A stretch of 64,000 nucleotides of DNA from Truepera sp. (GCA_965218435.1 CBDCKW010000009.1:3880607-3944606), one strand, 5' to 3'. Numbered from the stretch's first letter, positions 42,125 through 61,377 are shown. Made by a program: numbers and translations. The notes: a model not told the origin generated them from the sequence alone.

Positions 42125-42577
42125 TTCAGAGGGTCTCGAGCCCCAAAATTAGATTCGAGACCGACTTTTCAACCTCCTTTGTTTTCGCCTCCAAGTGCTT
42201 ACGCTCTAAAGCGATTTCTGCGCGGCGCTGCTCGAGTTCAGCTACAAGCTTTTGCTGAACCGCCAGAGGTGGAACGGGAAGAGGAAGCTCTCTTAAGTCA
42301 TTACTATTAATAGAGGCCAGATTCGTCGTAAACTTAGCACACGCCCTAAAGTAGCTACGTGCTGGTGGCGTGAGCATATACTCTAGAACAAACTGCGGTG
42401 AAGCCAAACTCGTATCAACTCGAGCTTTAAGAATATGGTTCTGATGTACACAGTCGAAGATTTCTTCGTTCCAAATAGCTGGTCTACCAACTAGTTCGGC
42501 ACTATTGCCTTCGCAAACAAGTAGGTCATGCTTTTGCAACCTAAATGCACCCATGGCGTCATCAGAAACGTTGATGT

Positions 42578-44574: not shown

Positions 44575-46899
44575 TCACTGGGCGGCCCCCAACATAAATG
44601 CGGCAGCGTCTTTTTTGAACTGCTGATAGAGCGCCAAGCACGTGGTTTCCGGGGTAACGCCTTCCGGTAACTCGGTAGTTTCGTTGCTGTAAAGCTCATT
44701 CTGGTCGGCTTCACCGGTTGCAGTGATGCCTACCTTGTCGGCTTCGTAGAGAAACACGGGATAGGCAAAACGCTCCCTTAGAAGTGCTCTGGTTTCCTGC
44801 TTTTTCTGCTCGTCCATACGCCGCTGATACTCGAGCAACTCTCTTTGCGTGTCTTTGCGCCTTGTTTGTTCAGCAAGGATGAGGGTCTCGAGGCTCTGTA
44901 CCTCTACTTCATCCGGCGCTTCGGTTTTGCGCAATTTTCTCAGCTTGGTTTGTGCCTGAGTTGCGGCGGTTTTAGCTGTTTGACTGAGGGTTTCTAACCG
45001 TGCGGTTTCTTTAGCTATTTCAGGAGCATATTTGGCCTCGACTTCTGCTCTGGCAGCCTCACGTTTGGCTTCAAAATCAGCCTTTTGCTCTTCGGTAAAC
45101 TTCTGTAAAAAGAGCAGCGAGGCTTTGACGGTTGCACCTGATGCGTAAAACGTCTCTTGCGGCAAGCTGACCACGGTCTGAATATAGGCGCGGTCTTCGC
45201 AAAACTCGCGTACATAGGCAAGGCTTGGGTTATTAAAGATACCTTCAGGCAGCACGATACCTAAGCGCCCGCCGGGTTTGAGCAGGTCTAAACAGCGTTC
45301 GATAAAGAGAATTTCGGTTTTGATTTTGCTTTTTTCACCTTTGGGCAGCGCGAAGAGGCTCGAGATAGGTTTGCCTTCTTGGGCGCGTACCCGCCTCTGC
45401 GCTTCTTCGTAAAGCGCACCGTAGTCACGTCGGTAGCGGGCCTCGGTCTCTTCGTCAACCGGCGGCAGGTGAACCACATCGGACGCTTCAACACTGGCCC
45501 CAAAAGGTGGGTTGGTCAAGATAATGTCGAAGCGTCCCTCAAAGATACCGTTGACGTTCAAAAAGCCGTCGTGGTGATGGACGCCGCCATGTCCGTCGCC
45601 GTGCATAATCATGTTCATCTTGCTGGTTCTCGCCATGCGTTCGTTCGCGTCGGTGCCGTAAATGCAGCGGTTGGCAAGCGTCCAGAGTTTTGAGCCCTTG
45701 ATGCTCTGGTCAAGCGTTTTCTGAAGCTCTTTATACCGCGCATCAAGCTGTGCAGCTTTCTCTTCTTCGGTAAACAAGGTGTTAGTTTCGACCTCAGCCT
45801 TATAGCTTTGATACTCCTTATCAGCCTCGGCTAAGATTTGCTGCCGCACAATCTCAAAAAAGCGTATGAGGAAGCCGCCCGAGCCGCTAGCCGGGTCGCA
45901 AATTACATCTTTCTCTTTGGGCTCAACCATCCGAATCATAAACTCTACGATGCTCCGGGGCGTAAAAAACTGCCCGATTTCACCCCGAAAGGTGCGGCCT
46001 AAAAACTTCTCGAATGCAATGCCTTTAACGTCTTCGCTGGTTTCAGAGAGGTCGTAACGCTCGAGTTCCTTAACAATTTCACGGACGGTATTGAACTTGA
46101 GGCTGATGGTTTCGTCAAGGTCGAAAATCTTGTCAGCTTTATACTCTTTCTTGGTTTGCTTAAAAAGGTCGTCAACAGGGTCGTCCACGTAAACTTTTTG
46201 TTTGTCTAAAAAAGCTGCCGTAAAAAGATTTTCTCTTACACGCCCTGCTCTAAGACGCCTTTCGTGAGTTACTTTGACAAACAAAATCTTGGCAATTTCA
46301 TCAAAAGCTGCTGCCGGGTCGAGCTTTTCACGGTTACGGATGATGTTGTGACATTTATGCAAAAGGTCGGCGAACTCGTTTTCCTTAAAGACCTTGAGTT
46401 TTTTGAGGAGCGTGTCAATCTCTTTGTCGCTGTCATCTGCGTGAGGGATGTCGCTTATTTCCTCGAGTGACTTGGGCATTCTTTCGTGCAGCACACGCCA
46501 GTATTTGGTTTCGCTGTTGTTATGCGTCACCAAAAAACGCGCGTTGGTATAGCGTGCATAGTTGTCGCCCTGCCAGTAGTCCTCTTGGGTGATGGTGACG
46601 TTATCGGATTTGCACTCAACGGCTATGAGCGGGCTTTTATTGTCCAATTTGTCTTGTGGCGTGCGCCAGACGAGAAAGTCTGCTCGAGCGTTACCCGTAC
46701 CGCGCCCGGTTGTATTCAGCTCTTCAGCAATCTGCTTGAGGGAAAAGCCGTATTCGTTGACGAGCATTAAAAGATACTCTTGCCTTACGCGCTCTTCGGG
46801 CTGTTCCTCTAACCATATTTCTCTGACATGGCTCCATATCTTGCTGCCCTGACGTTTTAGCGCGAGGCGAGTTTGAGATGTTTCGGACGTTGTGGTCAT
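44575..46899 (-). CDS. Fused restriction nuclease/N6-adenine DNA methyltransferase (Type IIG/IIB-like)
   Basis: N-terminal PEERVRQ..ADF..VECK nuclease; GQFFTPR, DPASGSGGF, NPPF. Confidence 0.9.
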   Translation of the reverse strand: MTTTSETSQTRLALKRQGSKIWSHVREIWLEEQPEERVRQEYLLMLVNEYGFSLKQIAEELNTTGRGTGNARADFLVWRTPQDKLDNKSPLIAVECKSDNVTITQEDYWQGDNYARYTNARFLVTHNNSETKYWRVLHERMPKSLEEISDIPHADDSDKEIDTLLKKLKVFKENEFADLLHKCHNIIRNREKLDPAAAFDEIAKILFVKVTHERRLRAGRVRENLFTAAFLDKQKVYVDDPVDDLFKQTKKEYKADKIFDLDETISLKFNTVREIVKELERYDLSETSEDVKGIAFEKFLGRTFRGEIGQFFTPRSIVEFMIRMVEPKEKDVICDPASGSGGFLIRFFEIVRQQILAEADKEYQSYKAEVETNTLFTEEEKAAQLDARYKELQKTLDQSIKGSKLWTLANRCIYGTDANERMARTSKMNMIMHGDGHGGVHHHDGFLNVNGIFEGRFDIILTNPPFGASVEASDVVHLPPVDEETEARYRRDYGALYEEAQRRVRAQEGKPISSLFALPKGEKSKIKTEILFIERCLDLLKPGGRLGIVLPEGIFNNPSLAYVREFCEDRAYIQTVVSLPQETFYASGATVKASLLFLQKFTEEQKADFEAKREAARAEVEAKYAPEIAKETARLETLSQTAKTAATQAQTKLRKLRKTEAPDEVEVQSLETLILAEQTRRKDTQRELLEYQRRMDEQKKQETRALLRERFAYPVFLYEADKVGITATGEADQNELYSNETTELPEGVTPETTCLALYQQFKKDAAAFMLGAAQ

Positions 46900-46988: not shown

Positions 46989-47423
46989 TTGAATGTCCAG
47001 TTTATTGAAAACGACCCAGCGCTGACCGGGGAGGCCCTTAACGCGCTCTATACCGCTGTTGGCTGGAACGATGACGAAATGCGCACGCCGGAGAAAACGC
47101 AGCTGGTGCTGGAACGTGCCGCCTGTTTTGTCGCAGCTTGGGACGGCGAAACACTCGTTGGGTTTGGCCGCCTCTTCGCTGACGTGTACTGGGCACAAAT
47201 CTTGGATGTGATGACCCGGCCCGAGTACCGCCGCCGCGGAGTTGCTAAAGAGATTGTCTTGAGGCTCATCACCTACGCTGAAAAGGAGCAGCTGAGTCTG
47301 ATGCTGATCGCTGCGGGTGGGCTCGAGCGTTTGTACCGACAGTTCGGCTTTGCAGAGGCCGACCCCGCCACCGACGTGCTGATGTACCGGCCGTTACCGC
47401 AACCCGGCGAAGATTCAGGGTGA
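46989..47423 (+). CDS. GNAT N-acetyltransferase
   Basis: LVGFGR, PEYRRRGVA, LYRQFGF; TTG after GGAGG. Confidence 0.88.
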   Translation: MNVQFIENDPALTGEALNALYTAVGWNDDEMRTPEKTQLVLERAACFVAAWDGETLVGFGRLFADVYWAQILDVMTRPEYRRRGVAKEIVLRLITYAEKEQLSLMLIAAGGLERLYRQFGFAEADPATDVLMYRPLPQPGEDSG

Positions 47424-47505
47424 GCCAGGGTCACCTAACCCATCCTATCAAAGACGCCACGCGGCAAACGCCGTAAAAGTGGACACAGCAAAAGTAGACA
47501 CAGTA

Positions 47506-47531
47506 AAAGAGTCCCTGTACAGGGACTCTTT
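47506..47531. terminator. Bidirectional terminator ending the hydrolase cluster
   Basis: Perfect palindrome AAAGAGTCCCTGTACAGGGACTCTTT between convergent genes. Confidence 0.75.
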
Positions 47532-47594
47532 CGGCACTGAATCTAAAAGCTAGAGTTGAAAGAAAACTATCTAAAAACGGGTCCCTGCCAGATT

Positions 47595-49670
47595 TTACGG
47601 GTAACTGACGACGTTTCTTGGCGTCGTATTTCCCGCCGGGTTCGGTACCGCTCCGCCGGTGTTGTTGACGACATTCAAGATCGTTCCAACATCTCCTAGC
47701 GACACGGTTAAGACGCTGCGTAGGCGCACGCCGGGGGTATTGGGCACCTCAAAACCGCGCGAGGCGACGATATTCGGGTCGGAGAAAAAGACGCAGTACG
47801 CGCCGCCGCCGTAAAGTTCATGGTTGCGCACGTTGTCGGCGACTTTGTACGACGCCCACCCTTGACCCGTCGGACTCTGCCAAGCCGCTTGCGAGGGCGG
47901 GTCGTAGGGCATCTCGTTTTGGAAGAAGATCGTCTTACCGTTTTCGCCGTTCCAGATGACCTGATACTTTTGGTAGTGCTCGACGAACAGACCGGTCGCC
48001 AGCACATCGTCGCCATTGACGATCACGCCGCTAGCGGCGGTATTTTGGTTCCAACCGATCCCCGCGCCGTGGTCACCGCGCCACGCCCAGATATGGTCAA
48101 TCACGGTGTCGTCACTGTTGACGACCAAACTGACGGCAGATTTGCCCGCACGGGGGCCGCCGATACGGAAGTAGACGTCTTGGATGACGATAGGGTTGGC
48201 GGCGTGGCCTCGGCTCGAGCCCGCTTCGCCAACCGTAAGCAAAACGGGGCTGTTGACCGGTCCGGCGTCGAAGAGAATCCCGGCGACGATAACCCCGTCT
48301 ACATCGGCGACGCTCATCGCGTTGACGCCGTTTTCCGGTACCAGCGTCGGATAGCCGAGGCCGTAGATGACCGTGTTGGGCCGCGTGACCTTTAAGGTTT
48401 CGCTGAGCCGGTACACGCCGGGCGTAAAGAACAAGTTGAGACCTTGGGCCAGAGCCGCGTTGAGCGTTGCGGTACCGTCGCTCGGTTTGGCAACGTAAAA
48501 GTTTCTGAGCGGAACGGAAGTGCCCGGGGTATTGGGCCAGGTTGCGCCTCTCGAGTTTCTCTGTAACGCCGGGACAAACACGCTGTAGTTGCCCGCGCCA
48601 TCGATGTAAAGGTAGGGTTTTTCGCGCGTGACCGGGGTGGTATCTAACGTCGTGTGCGGTGGGTTCGGGAACGCCTGCGGCGGCGCACCCTGCACGCCTG
48701 AAAAGACCATGTTCCAGACGCCGCCGTCCCACCCTCTACCGAAGCTGCTGTTCCGGGTGTACCACTGCTGCTGCGAGCCCGAGCCGATACCCCCGTCTAT
48801 TCGGGCGTCAGCCAGATACCCCCCACTCGCGTAGCCCTGCCCAAAATCCTGATTCGACGGGGCCATCGTGAAATTACCCTTGATGTGAACGCGGCGCATG
48901 GGCGCGGCTTGCGATACTGCCCAGCGCGTGGTGCCGCCTTCGGGCGCGACCGAGAGGTTTTCTGCTGAGCGCCAAAAGTTTTGCGTGGCGTTTTTTTCGT
49001 CGCCTAAGTTCCAGCCGCTGTCTACGTTGATATTGCGGGTGATCGTGACGTCGTCGGGGTTTTTACCTAGACCCGCAACCGTCGTATAAAAACCCAGGTT
49101 GGCAAACACGTTGTAGCTACCGGGTTTGAACAAAAAGGTGTCGCGCTGACTGCCGAACTGCGCGGTAGAGCTGAGGAGCAGCCGGTTAAAAGCCGCGTCG
49201 AGGTCGCGCTGAATCACCGAGTCGGGGGTGCTGTCGTCGTAGATTTTGACGTTCGGGCCGAAGTCGGGGCGGTCGGAAGTCGGCAGGTTCGTCGTGGGGT
49301 TGCCGGTGCGTGTTACCCGAACAGAGCTCACGAGATCGTTGAAGTTGTTGTCTACCAAACAGCTGTCATCCCCGGTTAACGTAAGGCTGCGCCCCTGATA
49401 ATTCGCGTCGAGAAAGAGTTCGACTTGGTAGCCGTCGGCGACCCGGACGGAAGAAACGTTGTCGTTGGGCATTCCGAGGGCGATAAGGTCGTTGTAGTTG
49501 TAATCCCCTGCGTCTAAACTCACACTCTTCCCGCTAAATGAACAGTCCAGATATAGTTTTACGTCACCGACAGCAGTTGCGTCTAGGAGCTGGTTACTCT
49601 TTTCGGGGGTGCTACACGCACCCAGTAACAGGGTCAACCCAACGAGCAGGGCAAAAAGTTTTTGGGACAT
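47595..49670 (-). CDS. Lipoprotein: beta/gamma-crystallin domain plus GH55-like exo-beta-1,3-glucanase
   Basis: Lipobox LLGAC; NDNVSS/NDLVSS; ATQNFWRSAEN, WAVSQAAP, SQQQW, FQNEMPYDPP. Confidence 0.85.
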   Translation of the reverse strand: MSQKLFALLVGLTLLLGACSTPEKSNQLLDATAVGDVKLYLDCSFSGKSVSLDAGDYNYNDLIALGMPNDNVSSVRVADGYQVELFLDANYQGRSLTLTGDDSCLVDNNFNDLVSSVRVTRTGNPTTNLPTSDRPDFGPNVKIYDDSTPDSVIQRDLDAAFNRLLLSSTAQFGSQRDTFLFKPGSYNVFANLGFYTTVAGLGKNPDDVTITRNINVDSGWNLGDEKNATQNFWRSAENLSVAPEGGTTRWAVSQAAPMRRVHIKGNFTMAPSNQDFGQGYASGGYLADARIDGGIGSGSQQQWYTRNSSFGRGWDGGVWNMVFSGVQGAPPQAFPNPPHTTLDTTPVTREKPYLYIDGAGNYSVFVPALQRNSRGATWPNTPGTSVPLRNFYVAKPSDGTATLNAALAQGLNLFFTPGVYRLSETLKVTRPNTVIYGLGYPTLVPENGVNAMSVADVDGVIVAGILFDAGPVNSPVLLTVGEAGSSRGHAANPIVIQDVYFRIGGPRAGKSAVSLVVNSDDTVIDHIWAWRGDHGAGIGWNQNTAASGVIVNGDDVLATGLFVEHYQKYQVIWNGENGKTIFFQNEMPYDPPSQAAWQSPTGQGWASYKVADNVRNHELYGGGAYCVFFSDPNIVASRGFEVPNTPGVRLRSVLTVSLGDVGTILNVVNNTGGAVPNPAGNTTPRNVVSYP

Positions 49671-49795
49671 TAGGTATCCTTTCGTAAATGAAGTTTGGAA
49701 CGGGACTCGAGCGGCGCTTTAGGCGTTCTAAAATGCCGCCCCAGTGGCTTTCAAAGTTTTCTCTACAGGATTAAGTCGCCTCAGAAATGACAGTT

Positions 49796-51547
49796 TTACC
49801 AGCCGACGATCACATCTACCTGGCGCGGATTAGGGTTCTGTAGCAAGGTGCTCTTCTCAAATACGTCGTCGTAAGCGAAACCGTAAGCTTTGCCGTCAAG
49901 GCTGCGGTCGTGCCAGAACTTGGCGTAAAAGTTCGCCGGGGCGTTGCGGTAATAGAGGCTATCGTCGGCCCAGCGGCTGGGGTCTACGTCGATCACCACG
50001 TGGCGGTTGATAGCGGCGGCGAGCTGCGCCTCGACGACCTTCTCGAGGTCACTCCCGCGAGCAAACGCGCCGCTGGCCTCGAACACTTCGATGCTGCTCG
50101 GTTTGTTGACCACCAGACCCGCTGGCCCCCCATCTCTGGCGAATACGAAATTATCCCCCTGCACGCGGCCTCTAAAGGTACCCGCCTGATTCGTCAGCAC
50201 CAGGTCACGGCCCCGGTAGGTGTCCCAAATCTGATTGATGTAGGGGTTAAAGTAGCCCGCTTGTGAACGTCCGGCGGCGAACTCTCCGGCTTTAGGTGCG
50301 ACGATGCGGTAGGGCCGCCGGACCAAGGAGCGGAACTCGGCTTGTGGCAAGTTGGCGAAGTCGTTAAAAATCTGTGCGCGGGAGACGTTTTCACCCAGAG
50401 TGCGGTCAAAACCGTCGTTGGAGACGAGGCGGAGCCGCGTGGGAAAGCCAAACTGGTCAACGCGGGTCGTGTTCCCGAAAAACCCGATGTCGTTATAGGT
50501 GAATTCGCCGAAATCGAACACCACGTCTTGGTTGGGGTCTGAGGGGTTGTTGATGTCGGGTCCGGCAAACCCGACGCCGCCCGGTACCCCTAAAACCTCG
50601 AGAAACATCGGCGAACCGACGCTCAAAAAGATGCGGGCACCGTACATCTTAGGCAAGGTAAAGGTGCCGACGTCGCTCACGCGGTTAAAGTAATTCGCGT
50701 AGTTTTTGCCATTCTTGCTGAGGTGACCCGGCGCGGTGTTGTCTCCCGGCGACGCAGCCACCAAGTTGCCGCTGCGGTTGAGGTACGAGAGCGCGTTGTT
50801 CGCCGGATTATAGCCGAGGATGGCCCAGTACACCTGAGCATCCGGGTAAGCTCCGTTCGTCTGGTTGAGGACCCGAAAATTGATCCGCCCGGCCGGGGCT
50901 GGCGGCAAGATGACGCCACCGCCGTTACCGCCGCCGGTGCCGGTGCCAGTGGCCCACGGATCGTAGATATTCCAGCTGGCGTCTTGGTCGAAGCTGTTGG
51001 GCGTATCACTTTTTAGCGGTCCACCTCTTTGGGCCAACCACACCTCAGCGTTAAAGTGCCGCAGATAACGGCCGGGAAAGTTCTTCGATTCAAACGAGAT
51101 ACCCGTACCCGAAAGTCCGTCGCGCCCGCACCAGGTGGCGTCTCGCTTAAATAAATCGCTGTTGTCGTTACGGTCTAAGCGGACCCGCGAAGCCTGATGT
51201 CGTAAAAACGAACCGGGATAGTTGAGCGACTCTAAAGAGTAGCAGCTCGAGTCGGCCAATCCGGGGACGACCTTCCAGGTGGCATCTTGTTTGAGCAGGT
51301 CGGCGCTGCCCGAATTCACAATTTCAGTAAAGCCCAAGCCGCCCGCGTGCCGGAGGAAGCGGTTCGTCAAACCGGGAGTCGTCACCTGAAACGACTGATA
51401 CTGACCCACGCGCGGCGTTACCGCTTGAGGGGTGAGGGTCGGTGCGTCTAAACCGCAGGCGCTCAGGATCAGACCGAGCAGTACCAGCAAAACTGTTTTG
51501 ATACCTAAGTTTTTCGCTGTCAGGGTTGTAGCACGTCTTCGGTTCAT
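49796..51547 (-). CDS. Lipoprotein: AbfB/CBM42-like trefoil plus GH64 beta-1,3-glucanase
   Basis: Lipobox ILSAC; SLESLNYPGSFLRH/DATW repeats; EFTYN..NTTRVDQF, AYGFAYDDV. Confidence 0.87.
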   Translation of the reverse strand: MNRRRATTLTAKNLGIKTVLLVLLGLILSACGLDAPTLTPQAVTPRVGQYQSFQVTTPGLTNRFLRHAGGLGFTEIVNSGSADLLKQDATWKVVPGLADSSCYSLESLNYPGSFLRHQASRVRLDRNDNSDLFKRDATWCGRDGLSGTGISFESKNFPGRYLRHFNAEVWLAQRGGPLKSDTPNSFDQDASWNIYDPWATGTGTGGGNGGGVILPPAPAGRINFRVLNQTNGAYPDAQVYWAILGYNPANNALSYLNRSGNLVAASPGDNTAPGHLSKNGKNYANYFNRVSDVGTFTLPKMYGARIFLSVGSPMFLEVLGVPGGVGFAGPDINNPSDPNQDVVFDFGEFTYNDIGFFGNTTRVDQFGFPTRLRLVSNDGFDRTLGENVSRAQIFNDFANLPQAEFRSLVRRPYRIVAPKAGEFAAGRSQAGYFNPYINQIWDTYRGRDLVLTNQAGTFRGRVQGDNFVFARDGGPAGLVVNKPSSIEVFEASGAFARGSDLEKVVEAQLAAAINRHVVIDVDPSRWADDSLYYRNAPANFYAKFWHDRSLDGKAYGFAYDDVFEKSTLLQNPNPRQVDVIVGW

Positions 51548-51596
51548 AACGTCCTTTCTTTATTGGGGCTTAGGGAATCTTCTACTGATCTAAGCT

Positions 51597-53057
51597 CTAG
51601 TCCGTTACCAGCGGGTCGAGCTGTTTAGCAAACGGATAGCCGTCACGGGCGTCCCAATCGAGCCGCCAGTCAAACACCCCTTTGACCTGCGGGTAGCGGG
51701 CCTCGAGCTTCTTAAAGGTGTCAACGACTGAGTCAATTTTCCAGTAGTTATTGAGTTCGTTGTTGACGCCGAAACCGACTACTACGTTCTGTGGCCCCAT
51801 TAAAGCCATCCAGATTTTAATGTTTTCTAACAAGTAAGCGGGGTCTGAAAGGTCGGGGCCGTCGTAGTACTGCGGCGCACAGTAGTCGAGCGCACCGGCG
51901 TCCAACATAGCTTTACAAAACTGCTGGTCGCGTTTATTCCACGGTGCGGGCGGCGCGGTGATTAAAAAGCCGGGATAACGGCGCTTAAGTTCTTTGGCAA
52001 CCCAGATCATTTCAGGCGTATTGGGGTCGGCTTCGGCCTCGAAGGTATTAAAGTCCAGGCCGTCAAAGCCGCCCCACGCGTTGTAAAACTTCACGACGCT
52101 GTTCACGAAGTTTTGCGACACGTTGCGGTCGGTAAAGCGGACCGCTTGCCCCGCCCCACCTGCTGAAAGGATAAACTTGCGCCCCTGCCGACGGGAGAGC
52201 TGCATATCTGCGGCCCAGTTGGTCCAGGCACCGTTTCCATCGGGGGGCGCGGCAAACTTCAGCGTACCGGCAGGCTCGCCCCCGGCTTGGGTAGCCGAAA
52301 ACAGATAGATCAGGTTGTAATTGGGGTCAATGTCTTTAAGGCGTGGGACGCTCCCGGCAAAGGTCGCGTAATAGGCGGCGACGACCTTATTCCCATTTCC
52401 GCTAGGGGGCGTGGGCGGTTGCGGGGCCTCACAGGTGGTGGGTTGCCAGTACCAAGTGCTGATCGTCGGGTCGGTTTCGTCGGTGCCTCCAGCGACGACG
52501 TTGACGACCTTGTAGTAGCGTCCGTTAGCCGGATAGAGCGCAACGTCGCCGAGCTGATAGTTCGTCCCGGGCGTCCAGGTCAGGGCGTGACAAGTATTGG
52601 CGCTCGCCGTGCGCGTGACCCGCACCGAGCTCACGAGATCGTTGAAGTTGTTATCTATCAAACAGCTGTCATCCCCGGTTAACGTGAGGCTGCGGCCCTG
52701 ATAATTCGCGTCGAGAAAGAGTTCGACTTGGTAGCCGTCGGCGACCCGGACGGAAGAAACGTTGTCGTTGGGCATTCCGAGGGCGATAAGGTCGTTGTAG
52801 TTGTAATTACCTGCGCCCAACTGAACGCTCTCACCTGAGAAATTGCAGTCCAGATAGAGCACAACCGCACCGGTAGCTGCACTGACGAGTTGCGGCGGCG
52901 CGGCAGCGGGCGTGGTGACTACGTTACACGCGCTGAGGAGAAAGAGTAGCCCTGCTGCGAGTAGGGTAACGAGGGCAGGTTTAGAACGGCGCTGGTTGCG
53001 CTGCGTCGCTGGTAAAAACTCTGCGAGGGGTGACGGAAGGTTGGGTCGGTCTTTCAT
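51597..53057 (-). CDS. Lipoprotein: crystallin domain, CBM5/12-like domain and atypical GH18 domain
   Basis: Lipobox LLSAC; WTPGTNYQLGD; YNLIYLF, LSAGGAG, FDGLDFNTFE, APQYYD. Confidence 0.75.
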   Translation of the reverse strand: MKDRPNLPSPLAEFLPATQRNQRRSKPALVTLLAAGLLFLLSACNVVTTPAAAPPQLVSAATGAVVLYLDCNFSGESVQLGAGNYNYNDLIALGMPNDNVSSVRVADGYQVELFLDANYQGRSLTLTGDDSCLIDNNFNDLVSSVRVTRTASANTCHALTWTPGTNYQLGDVALYPANGRYYKVVNVVAGGTDETDPTISTWYWQPTTCEAPQPPTPPSGNGNKVVAAYYATFAGSVPRLKDIDPNYNLIYLFSATQAGGEPAGTLKFAAPPDGNGAWTNWAADMQLSRRQGRKFILSAGGAGQAVRFTDRNVSQNFVNSVVKFYNAWGGFDGLDFNTFEAEADPNTPEMIWVAKELKRRYPGFLITAPPAPWNKRDQQFCKAMLDAGALDYCAPQYYDGPDLSDPAYLLENIKIWMALMGPQNVVVGFGVNNELNNYWKIDSVVDTFKKLEARYPQVKGVFDWRLDWDARDGYPFAKQLDPLVTD

Positions 53058-53144
53058 AATAGTTCACCTCGGAGGGTGCTGCTAAAATTACCGGTTGCTC
53101 GGCGGCTGAGTACGTACTCAGCCGTTAATTAGACCCTCGAGGGG

Positions 53145-54932
53145 TTACTTCAGCGCGTTATAGATCGTTTTGCTGAGCGTCGCATTCCGATCTTCGCCGT
53201 CCATTGACCAGGCCATCGAGCCGCCCAAGCCCCGCTGCTTGATGTAGTTCATCTTGATGGTTAAGACTTCAGGATCGTCGTAGCTCCAGAACTCGTTACC
53301 GTCAAACTTCCACATTTGCTTGGTGACACTGCTGCGGTAGACGGACCCGGGTTTGTTAACGAGTACGTTGTAGTTGTCAATCCCCGCTTCGTACTCACCT
53401 TGAGGGATACCGCTCGCACTCTGGTAAAGGCCGTTGTTGGCGCTCCCGACGCCGCGCCAGCCGCGCCCGTAGTACGGTACGCCGACGACGAGTTTTTGTG
53501 CCGGTGCGCCTGCGCGTAAGTAGGTATTGACGGCGGTGTCTACGCTCCAGGTTTTTTCTTCGGCACCGCCGGGGCTCGCCGGGTCGGTATAGAGGTTCGA
53601 GTGAAAATTGGTCGGGCCAGTGGTCGCCCAACCGCCCCGGAAGTCGTAGGTCATTACGTTCATCAGGTCGAGCGAACGGGCGATGTTGGTGACCTCGAGC
53701 TTCCCGATTTTCGACGTTGCGGCGGGCAGCGCCGCAGTCAGGAGTTTGCCGCTCCCGGTTGCATCAAGTTGACGGCGAAACTCTTCTAACAAAAGCGTAA
53801 AGTTGCGCGTGTCTTCAGCCTGGACGATGTTCCCGGTGTTGCCTTCACTGCCGGGGTACTCCCAATCGATGTCGATGCCGTCAAACACGCCCAGCGCACT
53901 GCCGGGGCCACCCGCGCCGTCAGCTACCGGCAAGTTCCCTTTGATATAGATGTCTACACAGCTGCTGACGAACTTTTTACGGGCCGCGTCGGTTAAGGCC
54001 ACGTCGCTGAAGTTTTTGCTCCACGTCCAGCCACCGAGTGAAATAAGGACTCTGAGCCCCGGATACTTGGCTTTAAGTTCTTTAAGCTGATTGAAGTTAC
54101 CCTTGAGCTTTTGATCCCACACGTCAGCCACGCCGTCTACACTCTCACTACCGGTAAACGCCTTGCCGTAGTCGGCAAACGAATCGCTGATCCCCGGCGC
54201 GGTCACAGTACAGGTTCCTTCGGGCGTGATGCCGCCGAAGGCGTAGTTAAGGTGCGTCAGCGTCGCGGCTGCGCCGCTCCGGTCCATATCGGCGAGTCTG
54301 AAGTTACGCGTGTAGATGCCCCACTGCACAAAGTAACCGACGCGTTTGTAGCCGCCGGTGTTCGGGGGCGGTGGGGTGACGGTAGCCTTGGCGATCTTGA
54401 ACGACGAGGCTTTGTCGTTAAAGTCGGCGGGTAAAGCCGGAGTATCGGCGGAGAAGGTCTTAGCCGCGCCGCCGTAGTTGATGTCATCAAAAAGCTGAAC
54501 CTGATAGCCGCTCTGAACCTTGACCGAACTGATGCGGTCGTTCCACGCGGAGCCGACCCACGAGCTGTCGGCGTCGGCGCAGAACGACGCGCCGCCGTAG
54601 TTGCCGTTTTCAAAAAAGCACGCGGTCCCGCTGGCTGGTGGGGGTGGCGGCGTGGTGCCGCCACTACACCCGTCAGTTACTTTCGTCCACGGTTGACCGC
54701 TTCCTTCAGGGCCGCTATTTGTCGCCGGATTGTTGCCCTGCGTCCACCAGTTCGCCTTATAGGTCACGCCGTTATAGACGACCGTGTCGCCAGCGGTATA
54801 AGCGGTAGTTGCGTTCCAGGCTACGCAGCTGACTGCCTGCGTCCCGACCTCGGCGGCGGGTTCAGGGAGCTTAGAGGTGTTGCAGCTCGCAAGCAGCAGC
54901 GCGAGTCCGGCGATTTTCCACATTCCGTTCAT
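53145..54932 (-). CDS. Lipoprotein chitinase: CBM5/12, crystallin domain and GH18
   Basis: Lipobox LLASC; AWNATTAY..YKANWWTQG; SLGGWTWS, FDGIDIDWEYP, MTYDF. Confidence 0.93.
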   Translation of the reverse strand: MNGMWKIAGLALLLASCNTSKLPEPAAEVGTQAVSCVAWNATTAYTAGDTVVYNGVTYKANWWTQGNNPATNSGPEGSGQPWTKVTDGCSGGTTPPPPPASGTACFFENGNYGGASFCADADSSWVGSAWNDRISSVKVQSGYQVQLFDDINYGGAAKTFSADTPALPADFNDKASSFKIAKATVTPPPPNTGGYKRVGYFVQWGIYTRNFRLADMDRSGAAATLTHLNYAFGGITPEGTCTVTAPGISDSFADYGKAFTGSESVDGVADVWDQKLKGNFNQLKELKAKYPGLRVLISLGGWTWSKNFSDVALTDAARKKFVSSCVDIYIKGNLPVADGAGGPGSALGVFDGIDIDWEYPGSEGNTGNIVQAEDTRNFTLLLEEFRRQLDATGSGKLLTAALPAATSKIGKLEVTNIARSLDLMNVMTYDFRGGWATTGPTNFHSNLYTDPASPGGAEEKTWSVDTAVNTYLRAGAPAQKLVVGVPYYGRGWRGVGSANNGLYQSASGIPQGEYEAGIDNYNVLVNKPGSVYRSSVTKQMWKFDGNEFWSYDDPEVLTIKMNYIKQRGLGGSMAWSMDGEDRNATLSKTIYNALK

Positions 54933-54992
54933 CTTTTCTCCTTTGACTGTTGGTTCTACCCTGTAGCGCAAAACTAAAGCTAGCCAACAGCG

Positions 54993-56447
54993 TTAGTAGG
55001 CTACAAACTCAACTCGGCCGAGCGATACGCCGTCGTTATTCGCGCGGATGGTTAGGGTCTGAGTGCCTGCGCCGATACCGGCAAAATCAACGTTGACAGT
55101 CTGTCCCCGGTCAAACGAAAGAGGGATGGTGCGTCCGGCAAACCCAACCGTAATTGAGCGGCTATCCGAGCTACTGTTACTCGTAACCTTAAGCCGCAGA
55201 TTGGCTGAGCGCGTGACGTTGACGCTCCAGCTTTTCGTGGCACCGTTGCCGATCCCGCCGACGCTACTACTCACTACGCCGGGAGCGTTGACGCTGCCGG
55301 ACGGTGCCCCGGTATTGTTGATAATCTTAAATGACGACACTCGGTCGTTAAAGCCAAAGTCGACGAATGAGCCGTAATCACCGTTAAGGGCGTAACCCTG
55401 GCCACCAAAGTTAATGTCATCAAACACCTGGACTTGGTAGCCGCTTTTGACCTTAACCGAGCTGATCCGGTCGTTCCAAGCGTTGCCTACCCAGCTACTA
55501 TCGCCGTCGGCGCAAAACGAAGCACCACGGTACTGGGTATCTTCGTAAAAACACACGTTTCCACCGCTGCCGCCGGGCCTGCCATAAATTGCGGCGATGG
55601 CGTTCAGGTCACCTTGGGTAAAGCCGTTGATCTCATCGTTGCCGACGCGTTCGGGCGGAAAGCCGTTTTTAGGGACATAATCCCAGCGGCCGTTTACAAA
55701 GTAGTTACGGTAGTGCATCATCGACTGAAAGTCGTACGGGCCGATCGGGGTGCCCGCCGAGCCGTAGTCGATTGCGTTTTGACTGCCGCCCGCGTTGACC
55801 ACAACCCACTGGTCGCGGTCTTGTCGCACCTGTTCGTGGGCCAGCCCGACCGCGTGCCCCAGTTCGTGACGGGCTGGGTTGACGCCGCAGCCATTTCCAA
55901 GCGACAACTCTTGTCTACCGCCGATTCTGCCGATATACGACCAGCAGCCATTTTTAGAGACGACGCTGACATAATCGGCTTGACTCGTCCGGGGCACGAA
56001 ACGGACGACGGTTTTGGCGTCGTAGTCGGTTTTGGCCTTCAAGAAGGCGTCACGGTCAACTTGCGTTGCGCCGGGGTCGAAAACGTAAGGGATGACCGCG
56101 CCCGGCCACTTTTGACCGGTCGCATTGACGATACCCGAGCCTTGGGGGGCAAGCGCATTGCTGTCAAGTCGCCGTAAAACCTGTTTGTCCGGTGCAATAA
56201 GGGTTTGCCCCTCGAGCCGAGCAATTGCAACATCCCCGACAAAAGCGTGATCGCCTTTAAGCACCGCAGTTACGGGTTGCTTAAAGCCTAAGAGTCTGGC
56301 CTTAAACTCCTGACCTTGAGGGTGCTGTGAGGCGTAGAGTAGGTCACTCTTAGCAGTGACAGGCGCAGTACTGTCTCTGTCTAAACTGCTACAAGCTGCC
56401 AATAGTACTAGTAGTCCGGCCATAGCAAATGAAAAGCTCTTCATCAT
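54993..56447 (-). CDS. Lipoprotein: astacin (M12A) metalloprotease, crystallin domain and C-terminal beta-sandwich
   Basis: Lipobox LLAAC; GCWSYIG, HELGHAVGLAHEQVRQDRD, Met-turn SMMHY. Confidence 0.9.
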   Translation of the reverse strand: MMKSFSFAMAGLLVLLAACSSLDRDSTAPVTAKSDLLYASQHPQGQEFKARLLGFKQPVTAVLKGDHAFVGDVAIARLEGQTLIAPDKQVLRRLDSNALAPQGSGIVNATGQKWPGAVIPYVFDPGATQVDRDAFLKAKTDYDAKTVVRFVPRTSQADYVSVVSKNGCWSYIGRIGGRQELSLGNGCGVNPARHELGHAVGLAHEQVRQDRDQWVVVNAGGSQNAIDYGSAGTPIGPYDFQSMMHYRNYFVNGRWDYVPKNGFPPERVGNDEINGFTQGDLNAIAAIYGRPGGSGGNVCFYEDTQYRGASFCADGDSSWVGNAWNDRISSVKVKSGYQVQVFDDINFGGQGYALNGDYGSFVDFGFNDRVSSFKIINNTGAPSGSVNAPGVVSSSVGGIGNGATKSWSVNVTRSANLRLKVTSNSSSDSRSITVGFAGRTIPLSFDRGQTVNVDFAGIGAGTQTLTIRANNDGVSLGRVEFVAY

Positions 56448-56558
56448 TTTCGCTTTTTCTCCTTGTGGGCTCGGTCATAAAATAGTTTCGCCAGGGGAGT
56501 AAGCCCGTGTTGAGTCCGTTTCAAACGCGGCTCCTCGTTTCCCCAGGTGATGCGGACG

Positions 56559-56597
56559 CCTAAGAGACCATTTCCGACCAAGGTTGGGTCTCTTAGG
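56559..56597. repeat. Intergenic inverted repeat
   Basis: CCTAAGAGACC...GGTCTCTTAGG between the GH81 and astacin genes. Confidence 0.6.
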
Positions 56598-56684
56598 TAC
56601 TAGGGCGTTCGGTCCTAGTTCTCTCAGGGTTGTCCGTTACATAACGCCTCCTTCAAGGTGTGGCGGCTACCGTTAAAACCGCCC

Positions 56685-59546
56685 TTAGAACGTGACGAAT
56701 TCAACCTTGCCGAGCGAAACGCCGTCGTTATCAGCGCGGATACTTAAGGTTTGGCTGCCCGCCCCAATCCCCGGAAAATCTATGTTGAGAGTCTGGCCCG
56801 CGTCGTACGAGAGCGGAATGGTGCGCCCGGTGAAGCTCACCGTAAGCGAGCGGCTGTTTAAGGTGCCCGCAGCGGTAACTTTGAGGCGTAAGTTAGCTGC
56901 CCTGGTCACGTTAAGTTGCCAGGTTTTGCTCGAGCCGTTCGCTACTGCGCCCGCATTTTCCGTTACGACGCCCGGAACGTTGACGCTGCCCGCAGGCGGG
57001 GGCGTGCTGAGCTGAGAAATCTTAAACGATGAGGCTTGATCGTTGAAGTCGGGCAGTGACGCAGCGTCGCCGGTCAATGTCTTGCTCGAGCCGCCGTAGT
57101 TGCTGTCCCAGTAGAGCTGGACTTGATAACCGGATTTAACCTTAACTGAGCTGATACGGTCGTTCCAGGCGCTGCCGACCCAGCTGCTGCTGGCGTCGGC
57201 GCAAAACGACGCGCCCTGGTAGTTGTTGTGTTCAAAAAAGCACGCGACGCCGCTCGGGGCCGGGGGTGGCGGTGTGGTCCCGCCTCCACTACCGCGTGAC
57301 GTAGCGAGGGAACGCGCTGGGACGTCTAAGCGGCCACCGTCTGAATAGGTTACGGTCGTTGCAGCGTTGCCGGGGTTATACGCCACGTAGGTACGCGCGG
57401 TCCCTTTGTCAAAGGCGACGGCTGTGGGAGAGCTCGAGGTCAACCCAAAAACCGGACGCCCCAGCGCGTTGAGGTTGTGAATCCAGTGATAGGTAAACGC
57501 TTTAGACTGCCCCTCTTCGGGGGTGTACCCCGGATTGGCGTCAAACCTCGAGATCGCTGCGGCCGGGTCCGTAAGCGCCAGATAGCTCCACCAGATATCT
57601 TGCCAGACCCCCGGTTCGCCACCTTTTTCGCTGATCATGTGGTTCCAGTTCGTCTTGATGTAATCGGGGCGGCTGCCCAGATATATCGAACCGGGTTGAA
57701 TCGGTAAGAGGTTGATGCCCTGAATCTTTTCAGGTTCGGCGGTAAACCACGTCGAGTACGACCCCCCGTCGCCCCAGTTCATCCCGACGGCCGGGTGCCG
57801 AAAGTCGCTCGGGTAGACGGCGTCATCAACGTCAAACCAGTACTGCTCGATGGCGCTGACTTCGGTGGCGTAGAGGTACTCGCCCAGGTCGCGGATGCCA
57901 GCGTCGCCAATCGCTGCGCCCCAGAGCACGACGCCGGTCGCAAAGTTGATGGCTTCAGATGACGATTCGTTGTTGTTGCCCGCCGCAAACCCGGCGTGAC
58001 CCGACGCCCACGAGTGTCCGGCGTAGGGGTCGAAGTTGCGGAGTTTGGGGAAGCGGCTGTCCTGACCGGGGTTGGCGGCGTCAAAAATTAGGTCGTTGAT
58101 CTGGTTTTTCCATTGCTGTGCCCAATCGGGGTCGTACACTGAAATGGCGGCGGCGGCCTGCACGAAGTAGCCGTAGTGAAAGTGATGATCGTTGAGTTCA
58201 GTATCCGAGCCATACGAAGCCGGGTAGCCGATCAGCGTACCCCACACGTCGTCGTAAGCGAAGTATTGTGGGCCGCCCGGGGTGAGCCACGCCTCGAGCG
58301 ACGCTTTCATATTGTTCAAAAAGGCGTCTCTAGCCCCCGTGTTGCCGAGCTGAGCCGCGATATGCGCTAAATCTCCGGCGCGGCCTAAACTTTTACCGAC
58401 CCAGTAGGTATCGTTCCCGGTGATGCCCGGTTTCGCCGCCGCTTCGTTCACATAGCCCGCCAAGCGGTTGCGGTCATAAGTCCCGAGGTCGGGCAAGGTC
58501 GGCAAGACGCCGCTGAATTTAAGACTGGTCGAAAAGCTGTTGCCGTTCAAAACTTTCATGGTGCTGCGGGCCGAATTGTAGGTGTAGCCGGTCAGCGCCG
58601 CGCTGCTGTTTAACCACTGATGCCGGTACAAAGCCATCAAGGGCCGCGTTTCCGCCCCCTCTTTGACTTGCGTCGTCGCCGTGTAGGTTGTGGTGATATT
58701 GCCGTTATCCACACGGTACGTGACTTTGGTATCGGTGACGAACGCAAAGGCGTGCTGCGCGAACTCGTTTAAGGTTGAACCGTTCCGGTCGGGCAGCGCC
58801 GCGACGGAGAAGTAATCTTTGCCGCCTAGGTTCGAGCGGAGCGTATTGCCGCTGATACTCCAACTCGAGCCCGCCGGGGCAAAGAGCCCGTAGTCGCGAC
58901 CGCGAATCGAGACGCCGACGACGTTGCCGTTATTTGCCCACACGTCCGGCGCACCGTTAAAGGTGACCTGCGCGTCGCCGCCGGTTTTGGTCGCGTACAC
59001 GTACGGTAGGCCGTGGCCGAAGGTGGCCCGCAGGCTCGAGCCCCCGCCACTCCAGTAAGCGCTGACGGTCCAGTCGCTGTATCCGTCTAACTTCGCGTCC
59101 GGTGAGCTGAGCCCGGCGACGCCGAGCGTAAAGTCTTTGGTGTAGGTATATTCGTATTTGCGCTGATCCGGGGTAATCACATACGTTTTCGGATACGAGA
59201 CGCCCAAACCGCCCGCTTCGGCTTGCATCGCCAAAGGGTGCGCGTGCATGGTTGTGCTGTAGGGGTTATCTGGGTAACGCTGAAAGACGAGCGACGACCA
59301 CCAGTCGTTCGTCGGAGTGGGGCCACGGACGTTCGCGGTTCGCTTCGGCGCAACCGGTGTGCCGACGTTGTTCTCCGGGCCTCTGGCACCGGGGGGCAAG
59401 GCGCTGGTGACAAGTTCGGGCTCGGCGGGTGCGCTGTTATCCCCCAACTGCGTACAAGACGTGATACCGAGTAGGAGCAGCGCCCCTAACCCGGCGGCGC
59501 GGAGTCCTGTTCGTCTGCTTTTGCTCAAGTACTTTGGTAGATTCAT
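56685..59546 (-). CDS. Lipoprotein: GH81 endo-beta-1,3-glucanase, crystallin domain and C-terminal beta-sandwich
   Basis: Lipobox-like ITSC; PTNDWWSS, LNDHHFHYGY, GHSWASG, ESSSEA. Start MNLPKY after GAGG. Confidence 0.92.
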   Translation of the reverse strand: MNLPKYLSKSRRTGLRAAGLGALLLLGITSCTQLGDNSAPAEPELVTSALPPGARGPENNVGTPVAPKRTANVRGPTPTNDWWSSLVFQRYPDNPYSTTMHAHPLAMQAEAGGLGVSYPKTYVITPDQRKYEYTYTKDFTLGVAGLSSPDAKLDGYSDWTVSAYWSGGGSSLRATFGHGLPYVYATKTGGDAQVTFNGAPDVWANNGNVVGVSIRGRDYGLFAPAGSSWSISGNTLRSNLGGKDYFSVAALPDRNGSTLNEFAQHAFAFVTDTKVTYRVDNGNITTTYTATTQVKEGAETRPLMALYRHQWLNSSAALTGYTYNSARSTMKVLNGNSFSTSLKFSGVLPTLPDLGTYDRNRLAGYVNEAAAKPGITGNDTYWVGKSLGRAGDLAHIAAQLGNTGARDAFLNNMKASLEAWLTPGGPQYFAYDDVWGTLIGYPASYGSDTELNDHHFHYGYFVQAAAAISVYDPDWAQQWKNQINDLIFDAANPGQDSRFPKLRNFDPYAGHSWASGHAGFAAGNNNESSSEAINFATGVVLWGAAIGDAGIRDLGEYLYATEVSAIEQYWFDVDDAVYPSDFRHPAVGMNWGDGGSYSTWFTAEPEKIQGINLLPIQPGSIYLGSRPDYIKTNWNHMISEKGGEPGVWQDIWWSYLALTDPAAAISRFDANPGYTPEEGQSKAFTYHWIHNLNALGRPVFGLTSSSPTAVAFDKGTARTYVAYNPGNAATTVTYSDGGRLDVPARSLATSRGSGGGTTPPPPAPSGVACFFEHNNYQGASFCADASSSWVGSAWNDRISSVKVKSGYQVQLYWDSNYGGSSKTLTGDAASLPDFNDQASSFKISQLSTPPPAGSVNVPGVVTENAGAVANGSSKTWQLNVTRAANLRLKVTAAGTLNSRSLTVSFTGRTIPLSYDAGQTLNIDFPGIGAGSQTLSIRADNDGVSLGKVEFVTF

Positions 59547-59658
59547 AGCTTCCTCTTTTCTTAGTTGGCTGCCGGGGTAGACGGTGGAGGCGTAGACGTT
59601 ACGGAAACGACAGTTAAGGGATTTCGGCATTTGAGGTCGAGGTCTTGACCTCTAAGCG

Positions 59659-60690
59659 TTATCCGGGTAAGCCGGGGCCTCTTTTGACCGGCGCAGTAGA
59701 GCCCCGCACGACGAGCGTCGTCGGCAGGCTGATACGGGGGACGGCGGCTTCGCTCCCTTTAAGGAGTGAGAGTAAAACCCGGGTTGCGGCTGCGCCCATG
59801 TCGGCGAGCGGTTGGCGGACGGTGGTCAGCGGCGGATAGACCTGCGCGGCAGACGGAATGTCGTCAAAACCGACGACCGATACGTCGGCGGGGACGCGCA
59901 AACCGAGTTCGTGCGCCGCCGCTACCGCCCCGAACGCCGACACGTCGTTGGCAGCAAAAAGTGCGGTTGGGCGCTCAGGTAAGCGCAGAAGTTCGGTTGC
60001 GGCCTGAAAACTGCGGGGTTGATAAAAGTCGCCGGGCCGGACGAGCGCCTCGTCAAAAGGCAGACCTGCGGCTTGCAACCCCTCGCGGTAACCGCGCAAG
60101 CGCTCAGCGGCCGCGCCGGTCGCCGGGTCGCCGGTTACGAACCCGATACGGCGGTGACCGAGTTCGGCGAGGTGCGCGACCGCGCTGCGCGCACCTCCGA
60201 GATTGTCGGTGCCGACCGTCGGCAAGCGGGTGTTTGCGCCGCGGTGGTCAACAATGACGACCGGTAAAGTAAGTTGCTCGAGCATCGCTAGGTGATACTC
60301 AATCGTTTTTGGCAGCACCGTCAACAGCCCGTCGGCCAGCCCTCCGGCAGCGAGGCCGAAGAGCCGTTTGCGTTCGCGTTCCGGGTCGCGGTGCGTCGTA
60401 TAGAGCAGCAGGTCGTACCCGGAATGCTCGAGCGCGTCCCCTACGCCGCGGACAATCTCACCGACATATTCGGTGCCGATGTCGGGGACCAACATCCCGA
60501 GCACCTGCGTTTGGCCTCCCGCCAAGCGTTTGGCCTGTACGTTGGCCACATAGCCGAGGCTCTGCGCCACAGCCTGCACCCGTTCCCGGGTACGTTCAGA
60601 AACACCTGACTGATTGTTGAGCGCCCTCGAGACCGTCATCGCCGAAACCTCTGCTAAACGTGCAATATCGTGAATCGTAGGTACAGAGAT
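59659..60690 (-). CDS. LacI-family transcriptional regulator
   Basis: In-frame upstream sequence completes the HTH ([22 protein letters not shown]); [17 protein letters not shown]. Probable non-canonical ATC start. Confidence 0.9.
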
Positions 60691-60718
60691 AGCTACGTTC
60701 CCCCCTTCTTGTTTGTTC

Positions 60719-60758
60719 GTTAGCGGTAACTTTAGCGGTAACGCTCTCTTTTTGTCAA
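60719..60758 (-). promoter_or_regulatory. sigma70 promoter overlapped by tandem LacI-type operators
   Basis: TTGACA-N18-TAAAGT; GTTAGCGGTAAC and TTTAGCGGTAAC at 60719-60742. Confidence 0.7.
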
Positions 60759-60838
60759 GCTGCCAATCACGTGATTGGTACAGTAGAAACCTCCCGAGAG
60801 CGGGCGTTTCGGCACAAAAAACTGTTTACTACACGTTT

Positions 60839-61047
60839 TTTAGTACACGACAAAAAATAGTTTTACAAGTTTGGGACGGGCTATTGATCCCTCTGAAAAG
60901 TAGCGTTTATGTCCCCAGAGACTGCTGTCTAGGACGATGTTCAAAGGGGTTTACCCGGTCATGCTCATACAGACAAACATCCTCTTCTTGGGCTTACACA
61001 ACAATCACGTTCTGGACAAGGTTGCTGAAGAATTGTCGTGTACTCAG
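60839..61047 (-). mobile_element. About 209-bp internally deleted IS4-like element (MITE)
   Basis: Inverted AGTACACGACAA/TTGTCGTGTACT; direct repeat ACACGTTT(T) at 60831 and 61048; minus-strand end reads FLSCT. Confidence 0.7.
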
Positions 61048-61377
61048 ACACGTTTTAAGGTGAGCTGCTAGCTCAGGGGCTGGGGGACACCTTAGCAGTG
61101 TAGAAGGGAGCCTATCCAAAACTTATACAAGTGAGACCTGTACAAGCTGAAACCAGGTTGTGTTGATGGTTGCTCTTATTATGCTTTAAGTACGTGAGAG
61201 ACTTTGTCTGGCGTGCCTTGAACGGGGAGCTCGAGCACCGTCCGGGAGGGCATTCAGGCCGTCTTCACCGCCTCTTGGCGGCTAAAGGTCAGACCAAATA
61301 GGCGAGATAAAAACTCAGCTGTGACAATTCTTATAGTTTTGCTGCAGTGAGCTGAGAAGGGTTGAGTGAGTACCCCG

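Follow-up and report, generated by a model that had tools for sequence, protein, structure and literature searches.

A 64,000-nucleotide stretch of DNA (the window, G000:C9:3880607-3944606) was analysed from the 4.8-Mb genome of a Truepera species (57% GC, phylum Deinococcota). It contains seven co-oriented genes on the minus strand, which extend from 47595 to about 60696. A gene for a LacI-family repressor leads six genes for hydrolytic enzymes, g1 to g6, which code for a GH81 glycoside hydrolase (GH), an M12A astacin, a GH18 enzyme, an atypical GH18 enzyme, a GH64 and a GH55 enzyme, in this order (Table 1). A first-pass annotation had described lacI and six co-oriented genes without a sugar transporter, closed by a terminator. 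Gene calls and Pfam searches bear out this layout: the cluster holds no transporter gene, and no gene for a toxin, a contact apparatus or a biosynthetic pathway was found in the locus. SusC and SusD are absent from the seven assigned genes. The closing hairpin has the expected U tail, and only 2 of 200 shuffled sequences were equally stable, although a consensus terminator scan did not list the site. For comparison we used 128 genomes of the family (the source genome G000 with 4589 open reading frames (ORFs), and 127 others, including the Truepera congeners G002 and G005) and 364 genomes of the phylum, including G245 from the Deinococcaceae. C5 and C9 denote contigs of G000.

Table 1. Features of the lacI-led hydrolase cluster (positions in the window).
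Feature	Position	Strand	Evidence
sigma-70-type promoter (TTGACA, 18 nt, TAAAGT)	60729..60758	-	10/12 match; -35 conserved
tandem 12-bp near-palindromic operator pair, putative LacI site	60731-60742 + 60719-60730	-	over -10 box; conserved
LacI-family repressor	59659..60696	-	PF00356 + PF13377 over cut-off
g1, lipoprotein: GH81 endo-beta-1,3-glucanase + crystallin + C-terminal CBM6/35-like domain	56685..59546	-	PF17652 E 2e-65; PDB 6FOP E 1e-186
intergenic element, 237 nt: Shine-Dalgarno (SD) sequence + ATG-TAA (56637-56654), 11-bp stem (56559-56597), conserved downstream blocks	56448..56684	-	homology
g2, lipoprotein: M12A (astacin) zinc protease with propeptide + crystallin + CBM6/35-like domain of g1	54993..56447	-	PF01400 E 2e-33
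g3, lipoprotein: CBM5/12 + crystallin + canonical GH18 chitinase	53145..54932	-	PF00704 E 3.5e-80, PF02839
g4, lipoprotein: crystallin + small chitin-binding-like module + divergent GH18-fold domain (DxxDxNxxE)	51597..53057	-	homology
g5, lipoprotein: AbfB/CBM42 beta-trefoil + GH64 endo-beta-1,3-glucanase, no crystallin	49796..51547	-	PF16483 E 2e-83, PF05270 E 2e-48
g6, lipoprotein: crystallin + GH55 exo-beta-1,3-glucanase	47595..49670	-	PDB 4PEW E 1e-196
intrinsic terminator-like hairpin	47505..47531	-	12-bp stem, U tail, z-score -2.7

Pfam profiles above cut-off recognise LacI, GH81C, Astacin, GH18 with CBM5/12 and GH64 with AbfB; g4 yields a crystallin match only, and g6 a crystallin and a beta-helix match. 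Catalytic motifs are intact in g1, g2, g3, g5 and g6 and deviate in g4, so that five of the six enzymes conform to their families in both homology and motif. In g1, whose start was picked from the ribosome-binding site, the motifs NDHHFHYG and NNNESSSE align with 6FOP and 5T49, and we take their Asp and Glu to be catalytic. The proposed M12A protease is confirmed for g2 by the Astacin profile and by HELGHAVGLAH at residue 194 and SMMHY at 242, which match the zinc motif HExxHxxGxxH and the Met-turn SxMHY; g2 also resembles astacin itself (1AST, E 8e-30). A weak NCBIfam match of g2 to LegP (113 bits, cut-off 300) was attributed to the astacin fold alone and rejected. The nearest named homologues of g2 come from Cystobacter fuscus (65%) and Stigmatella aurantiaca (64%), and myxobacteria such as these are predators. 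In g3 the DxxDxDxE motif reads DGIDIDWE (residue 351), and chitinase B (1KFW) is matched with E 7e-100. GH64 is identified in g5 with 281 bits for PF16483, and the best solved match is 5H4E (E 4e-94). Residues 135-691 of g6 align with 4PEW, a database entry named 'putative secreted protein' which we take to be a GH55 enzyme; E586 in the g6 motif FQNEMPY aligns with a Glu that is Ala in the 4PEX-group sequence and is presumably catalytic. Glu348 and Asp364 of g5 are 16 residues apart, the same spacing as that of the catalytic Glu153/Asp169 given for GluY (PMC8394091).

Profile searches thus uphold the proposed GH families for g1, g3 and g5 through Pfam and for g6 through 4PEW, while g4 has no Pfam GH18 match. 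The g4 protein is similar to small GH18 enzymes (4TX8, Bacillus ChiA; E 1e-11 to 1e-15, and E 2e-21 in a profile search), with DGLDFNTFE in place of the DxxDxDxE motif. Because of the lacking Pfam match and this motif, its chitinase activity is uncertain. The search for relatives returned 275 homologues, many of them in Sorangium, Chitiniphilus and Andreprevotia. The one-residue shift is general among the 120 listed homologues, with Asp at the Asn position in 13, Gln for Glu in 10, and one unmatched. This DxxDx[N/D]xx[E/Q] subfamily (window 51597-52400 in g4) is common in Sorangium and in chitinolytic betaproteobacteria, and no close member with a solved structure was found. A single-sequence fold of the g4 catalytic domain reached a predicted local distance difference test score (pLDDT) of 44.

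All six enzymes had been thought to carry crystallin modules. This holds for five (g1, g2, g3, g4 and g6); the GH64 enzyme g5 carries AbfB/CBM42. A profile from the five cluster copies detects 6 of the 4589 ORFs of G000, which are those five and one paralogue on C5. Each of the five domains has two (N/D)(N/D)xxS(S/T) motifs, which we take to be the Ca2+-binding motif of crystallins, and none occurs in g5. The domains match 3HZB, clostrillin and Protein S. A second shared module is the 100-residue domain that ends both g1 and g2 (window 56685-56993 and 54993-55300) and has no Pfam match. Its model is a beta-sandwich (pLDDT 72), for which the top Foldseek matches are CBM6/CBM35-bearing proteins (TM-score about 0.6), and a structure atlas agrees weakly. 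This domain also occurs on GH16 and GH81 lipoproteins elsewhere; on metagenome contigs of low GC content (L170-L174), GH16-CBM56 lipoproteins have tails that are 50-57% identical to it. On the basis of the model it is a candidate for a new beta-glucan-binding module. Crystallin lipoproteins also occur outside the cluster in G005 (L019:8642-10543 and L020:8234-9625), one with three crystallins and one with a BSP-type peptidase domain.

A signal peptide with a lipobox Cys had been claimed for all six proteins, and a motif scan (not SignalP) agrees: the hydrophobic leaders end in ITSC31, LAAC19, LASC17, LSAC44, LSAC31 and LGAC19 in g1 to g6. The lipobox is not special to the cluster, since a crude scan, which missed g3, picks out 139 of 4589 ORFs, and all four enzymes of another glucanase cluster of G000 are among them. 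Twin-arginine-like leaders are seen in g1 and g5 and are not kept in the G002 counterpart of g1. One secretin is encoded in G000. As enzymes for insoluble walls must act outside the cell, display of the six proteins on the surface or on vesicles is a reasonable inference; the HPI protein of Deinococcus radiodurans, a predicted surface lipoprotein, provides a precedent (PMC10120038).

The repressor gene has orthologues in two of the 127 other family genomes (G002, 83%; G005, 79%). Promoter-type sites are no more frequent than expected (3 found, 4.7 expected by chance), and the promoter was accepted because G002, G005 and the C5 copy all have the -35 hexamer in the equivalent position. The tandem operator is likewise conserved in G002, G005 and at C5:337391. 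When an operator matrix was built from G002 and G005 alone, the window site ranked first in the whole of G000, with a score of 31.1 against maxima of 17.6-22.9 in 20 hexamer-shuffled genomes. The C5 operator scores 22.0, a value that shuffled genomes can also reach (0.1 expected per shuffle); it was accepted only because 55 nt at this site are homologous to the window promoter (84%, E 4e-11). This second copy of promoter and operator is followed by a decayed 5' end of lacI and precedes the crystallin-GH18 paralogue, which suggests a small regulon under one LacI repressor. Single-site operator scans gave 154 matches and are not interpretable. A further candidate at C9:94008 scored 26.7, above all 20 null maxima, and was rejected: it lies inside a gene for a sugar-binding protein, its score is due to the peptide repeat FTGVFTGN, and in G005 and G004 it has decayed at synonymous positions. 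Just upstream of the promoter (window about 60840-61050) there is a repeat, some 210 nt long, that resembles a miniature inverted-repeat transposable element (MITE); BLAST finds at least 11 further copies on C9 (81-89% identity).

The lacI start codon is unusual. The ORF that opens with ATG (60639) lacks the start of the helix-turn-helix, and the relatives begin with GTG where G000 has GTA (60694-60696). The region is covered by contigs from three sequencing runs that belong to a single study and probably stem from the source sample; among the alignment rows listed, none shows a change of this codon. Two codons after the GTA there is an in-frame ATC.

Only three of the 128 family genomes (G000, G002 and G005) have a close LacI with the tandem operator, and in each case these lead a differently shuffled set of enzymes. 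In G005, lacI is followed by an AbfB fragment, GH18, GH87, M12A, GH18, GH19, GH2-AbfB, GH64, PL14 and a GH16-GH55 fusion. The GH87 enzyme matches alpha-1,3-glucanases (5ZRU, E 1e-58), and the best solved match of the GH2 enzyme is a beta-D-galactofuranosidase (9J6N, E 8e-189). In G002, an ATP-binding cassette (ABC) importer and a GH3 gene precede lacI, followed by a GH81-crystallin-GH18 fusion and a CBM32-crystallin-GH18 gene, where the contig ends. An M12A-crystallin-GH18 fusion occurs in P0005. More distantly, G245 has two copies of a nine-gene lipoprotein cluster (GH18, M12A, MGH1-like, GH18, GH2, GH19, GH16, GH87, GH64), in which AbfB replaces the crystallin on every enzyme and beside which no LacI was seen.

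Strong GH87 matches are confined to two of the 364 phylum genomes (G005 and G245) and lie within such clusters in both; six other genomes have weak matches only. GH64 occurs in 10 phylum genomes, and all 8 genomes with this type of M12A (E<1e-40) are among these 10, a co-occurrence among kin rather than independent genomes, three of which belong to one genus. A further set of genes in G000 (C9:2527608-2537444, L028), where a ROK regulator is divergent from four CBM32 lipoproteins (GH55, PF11790/GH128-type, DUF1996, GH2-barrel-like), is probably another beta-glucan locus, and G245 too has a GH55 gene adjoining a GH128-type gene.

The cluster enzymes seem to have been exchanged horizontally. Most cluster domains share 65-81% identity between G000 and G005, compared with 96% for AccC. 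Between Truepera and G245 the values are 70-87% for the GH64, GH87, GH18 and GH19 domains and 66% for AccC; AccC is a single housekeeping gene and thus a thin control. Together with the patchy distribution and the flanks, which differ among G000, G002 and G005 as do gene order and content, these identities suggest horizontal exchange. The third-position GC content of the cluster (0.63-0.73) does not stand out from that of the genome (0.67 +/- 0.07), and composition thus gives no hint of recent import. The M12A proteases fall into a tight clade of astacins that are lipoproteins and have crystallin, AbfB or ricin tails; the Cystobacter and Stigmatella proteins are among its members. These myxobacterial sequences are grouped (100/98) inside a clade that is unresolved with respect to the Truepera sequences, and thus we claim no direction of transfer.

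On balance, we think it likely that this is a feeding locus under LacI control with which the bacterium digests the cell walls of fungi. It probably acts for the most part on fungal biomass that is dead or dying, and would be able to weaken live walls to some degree. In this scheme, LacI bound to the tandem operator over its own promoter would repress the locus until released by a product of beta-glucan breakdown, probably a laminari-oligosaccharide. The six lipoproteins would be exported and held by lipid at the envelope or on vesicles, where the astacin g2 may open the coat of wall protein, GH81 and GH64 may cut insoluble beta-1,3-glucan internally, GH55 may trim the ends to glucose, and g3, perhaps also g4, may cut chitin. 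Crystallin, CBM5/12, CBM42 and CBM6/35-like modules, apparently swapped freely between catalytic domains, would hold the enzymes on the wall, and ABC importers with genes outside the cluster would take up the products.

The case for a fungal wall as the target is good. Chitin, beta-1,3-glucan, alpha-1,3-glucan and galactofuranose are established components of filamentous fungal walls. The GH87, galactofuranosidase-like GH2, GH19 and GH16 genes in the sister clusters point to such walls, as laminarin or insect cuticle would not need such a set. The first-pass annotation had proposed a fungal wall lysis system and had leaned towards attack because a transporter is missing. Its target is strengthened by GH87, by the GH2 enzymes and by the fusions, while its lean towards attack is weakened by G002, where lacI lies directly downstream of the sugar ABC importer and GH3, an arrangement for which feeding is favoured over attack. 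The three next-closest LacIs of the family (49-50%) adjoin ABC and GH1 genes, and more distant LacIs are found beside GH1, GH3, GH16 or GH30 genes at 16 of 32 loci examined (32 of 80 loci, a limited set of reference domains and no control set of other LacIs). G000 itself has nagA, two GH3 genes, many genes for sugar permeases and, next to an ABC importer, a GH20-like gene; no GH1 match was found in G000. The region C5:314152-337445 (L029, L242) contains the GH20-like gene, a GntR regulator, the ABC importer, a broken GH3 fragment and the crystallin-GH18 paralogue with its operator and decayed lacI end, in addition to a GH30 + CBM6 + CBM32 lipoprotein beside a ROK gene. This region is a candidate partner for uptake and for beta-1,6-glucan.

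Several observations weigh against a feeding locus under LacI. A terminator-like hairpin separates the importer and GH3 of G002 from lacI, and neither has a close match in G000 or G005 (best 37-42%), apart from the broken GH3 fragment of 67 codons on C5, so that the link of this importer to lacI is one of adjacency only. No operator could be confirmed before an importer gene. The GTA codon may leave LacI poorly translated, and intergenic gaps of 49-237 nt and hairpins inside the cluster make co-transcription uncertain. No GH87 or GH16 match was found in G000, which makes the G000 set, directed at beta-1,3-glucan, chitin and protein, a poorer guide to the substrate than the sets of its relatives, and to this the deviant motif of g4 has to be added. 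Finally, the M12A gene is solitary in G225, G258, G259, G260, one G245 copy and two metagenome contigs.

The same enzymes could serve active mycophagy or antagonism, with tethered enzymes lysing living hyphae or yeasts on contact and the protease clearing the glycoprotein coat for the glucanases. We regard this as a minority possibility that deserves to be taken seriously. The layout is like that in Cellulosimicrobium, where viable yeast is attacked jointly by a protease and a GH64 enzyme that bears a beta-trefoil lectin domain (PMC1458353), and a GH64 enzyme with a ricin-like domain inhibits Candida (PMC8394091). M12A homologues bear crystallin, AbfB or ricin modules, the nearest named ones are myxobacterial, and searches of G000 and G005 turned up no dedicated importer. 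However, LacI control with uptake and glucosidase genes nearby follows a catabolic logic, the locus has none of the toxin, contact or biosynthetic genes mentioned above, and the enzymes would serve equally for necromass. A bolder version, speculative and in our opinion unlikely, is that a few Truepera and Deinococcus lineages are contact-feeding mycophages which trade a lipid-anchored wall-lysing kit among themselves and with myxobacteria. The crystallin and C-terminal CBM6/35-like domains would then be calcium-dependent modules that bind fungal walls and aim all enzymes, including the protease, at living hyphae.

Unspecific scavenging, in which beta-1,3-glucan and chitin would come from mixed sources such as algal storage glucan, lichen, callose or arthropod cuticle and fungi would not be the target, appears quite improbable to us. 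It would fit the frequency of GH55 (66 of 364 phylum genomes) and of GH18 matches (34 of 128 family genomes), the occurrence of GH81 in ordinary sugar-uptake loci of G001 and G028, and the lack of GH87 in G000. Against it stand the alpha-1,3-glucanase and galactofuranosidase-like genes of the sister clusters and the glucanase-chitinase fusions, which fit a substrate with both polymers; in addition, GH64 and GH81 recognise triple-helical glucan (PMC8949617). That the six genes were gathered one by one and are expressed independently, without forming one regulon, is highly unlikely, even though order, content and flanks vary among the three Truepera genomes and hairpins occur internally. The genes are co-oriented behind one promoter and operator conserved in three genomes, modules shared between genes of the cluster are 75-85% identical in DNA, and upstream of the stray C5 paralogue the operator persists next to a decayed lacI copy. 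We retain digestion of fungal walls as food as the preferred reading.

The long gap between g1 and g2 contains an element that is homologous to L021:3093-3254 of G005 (nhmmer E 5e-8), with the loop of the 11-bp stem inverted between the two copies. This is the one convincing match among the 127 other family genomes, and Rfam has no match for 56448-56684. A similar SD sequence with ATG-TAG is found at L021:17837, and such SD-ATG-stop sites are not enriched genome-wide (6/648). Beyond the hairpin that closes the cluster, restriction-modification genes occupy window 42126-46899 (with a fusion of HSDR_N and N6 methylase), and their specificity-like gene is apparently split by a DDE transposase at 42650-43576. 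In sequencing runs X1 and X2, lower-depth contigs over window 47400-61300 suggest that other strains with rearranged versions of the cluster are present in the same sample.

In a literature survey at the level of titles and abstract openings, none described such a locus in Truepera or Deinococcus. To our knowledge, Deinococcota have been studied for stress resistance, not for fungus-eating. Similar clusters in a few relatives point to this lifestyle in a bacterial group not known for it, which bears on the question of who recycles fungal biomass, and the enzyme set could serve as a wall-lysing cocktail. The locus also raises the questions whether crystallins bind fungal wall polymers, what role the DxxDxNxxE type of GH18 has, and which substrate a lectin-targeted astacin cuts.

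Parts of this arrangement have counterparts in other bacteria. The 'glucanallin' of Clostridium beijerinckii is reportedly a GH64 enzyme bearing a Ca2+-binding crystallin domain, and 5H4E, the best solved match of g5, is presumably its catalytic domain. A crystallin is joined to a wall hydrolase in both cases, but in Truepera it is found on all enzymes except GH64. The yeast-lytic systems of Cellulosimicrobium cellulans and Rarobacter also combine glucanase, protease and chitinase, with GH64 joined to a beta-trefoil and a protease joined to a binding module. They differ in being freely secreted, in using CBM13 and, in Rarobacter Protease I, a serine protease; the portions of these reports available to us do not describe one operon (PMC1458353, PMC8394091). 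Lysis of viable cells has been shown for them. The GH2 enzymes with AbfB in the G005 and G245 clusters are close relatives of the GH2 galactofuranosidase ORF1110 of Streptomyces JHA19, which carries AbfB/CBM42 (G005 was compared). The CBM42 of ORF1110 has been proposed to bind galactofuranose, and by analogy this would suit the AbfB of g5, although ORF1110 is a single enzyme and the AbfB of g5 is attached to a glucanase (PMC11627007).

Among known systems, the fungal cell wall utilisation locus (FCWUL) of Chitinophaga pinensis comes closest. It has several genes for GH18 chitinases with CBM5, together with genes for a beta-1,3-glucanase and for a putative peptidase annotated with a beta/gamma-crystallin. 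Induction by beta-1,3-glucan has been proposed for it, with binding modules aimed at the bulk wall (PMC10449523), and it is up-regulated on fungal necromass (PMC11497827). Both loci thus combine chitinases, beta-1,3-glucanase and a crystallin-bearing peptidase. The FCWUL has SusC/SusD and, as its membrane-spanning sensor-regulator, an extracytoplasmic function (ECF) sigma/anti-sigma pair, whereas the Truepera regulator is LacI; as SusC/D are absent and the regulator differs, the Truepera locus does not qualify as a Bacteroidota polysaccharide utilisation locus. GH81, GH64 and GH55 take the place of the GH16 enzyme of the FCWUL, and an astacin that of a lysyl endopeptidase. Export differs as well, with lipobox leaders in Truepera as opposed to signal peptidase I leaders and the type IX secretion system in the FCWUL, and the crystallin is found on five of the six Truepera enzymes. 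The host belongs to the Deinococcota and not to the Bacteroidota. In summary, this is a real and horizontally shuffled locus in an unexpected phylum, probably regulated by LacI and used for the digestion of fungal walls; a related locus is already known in C. pinensis. It provides a compact counterpart of the FCWUL outside the Bacteroidota, with a defined operator.

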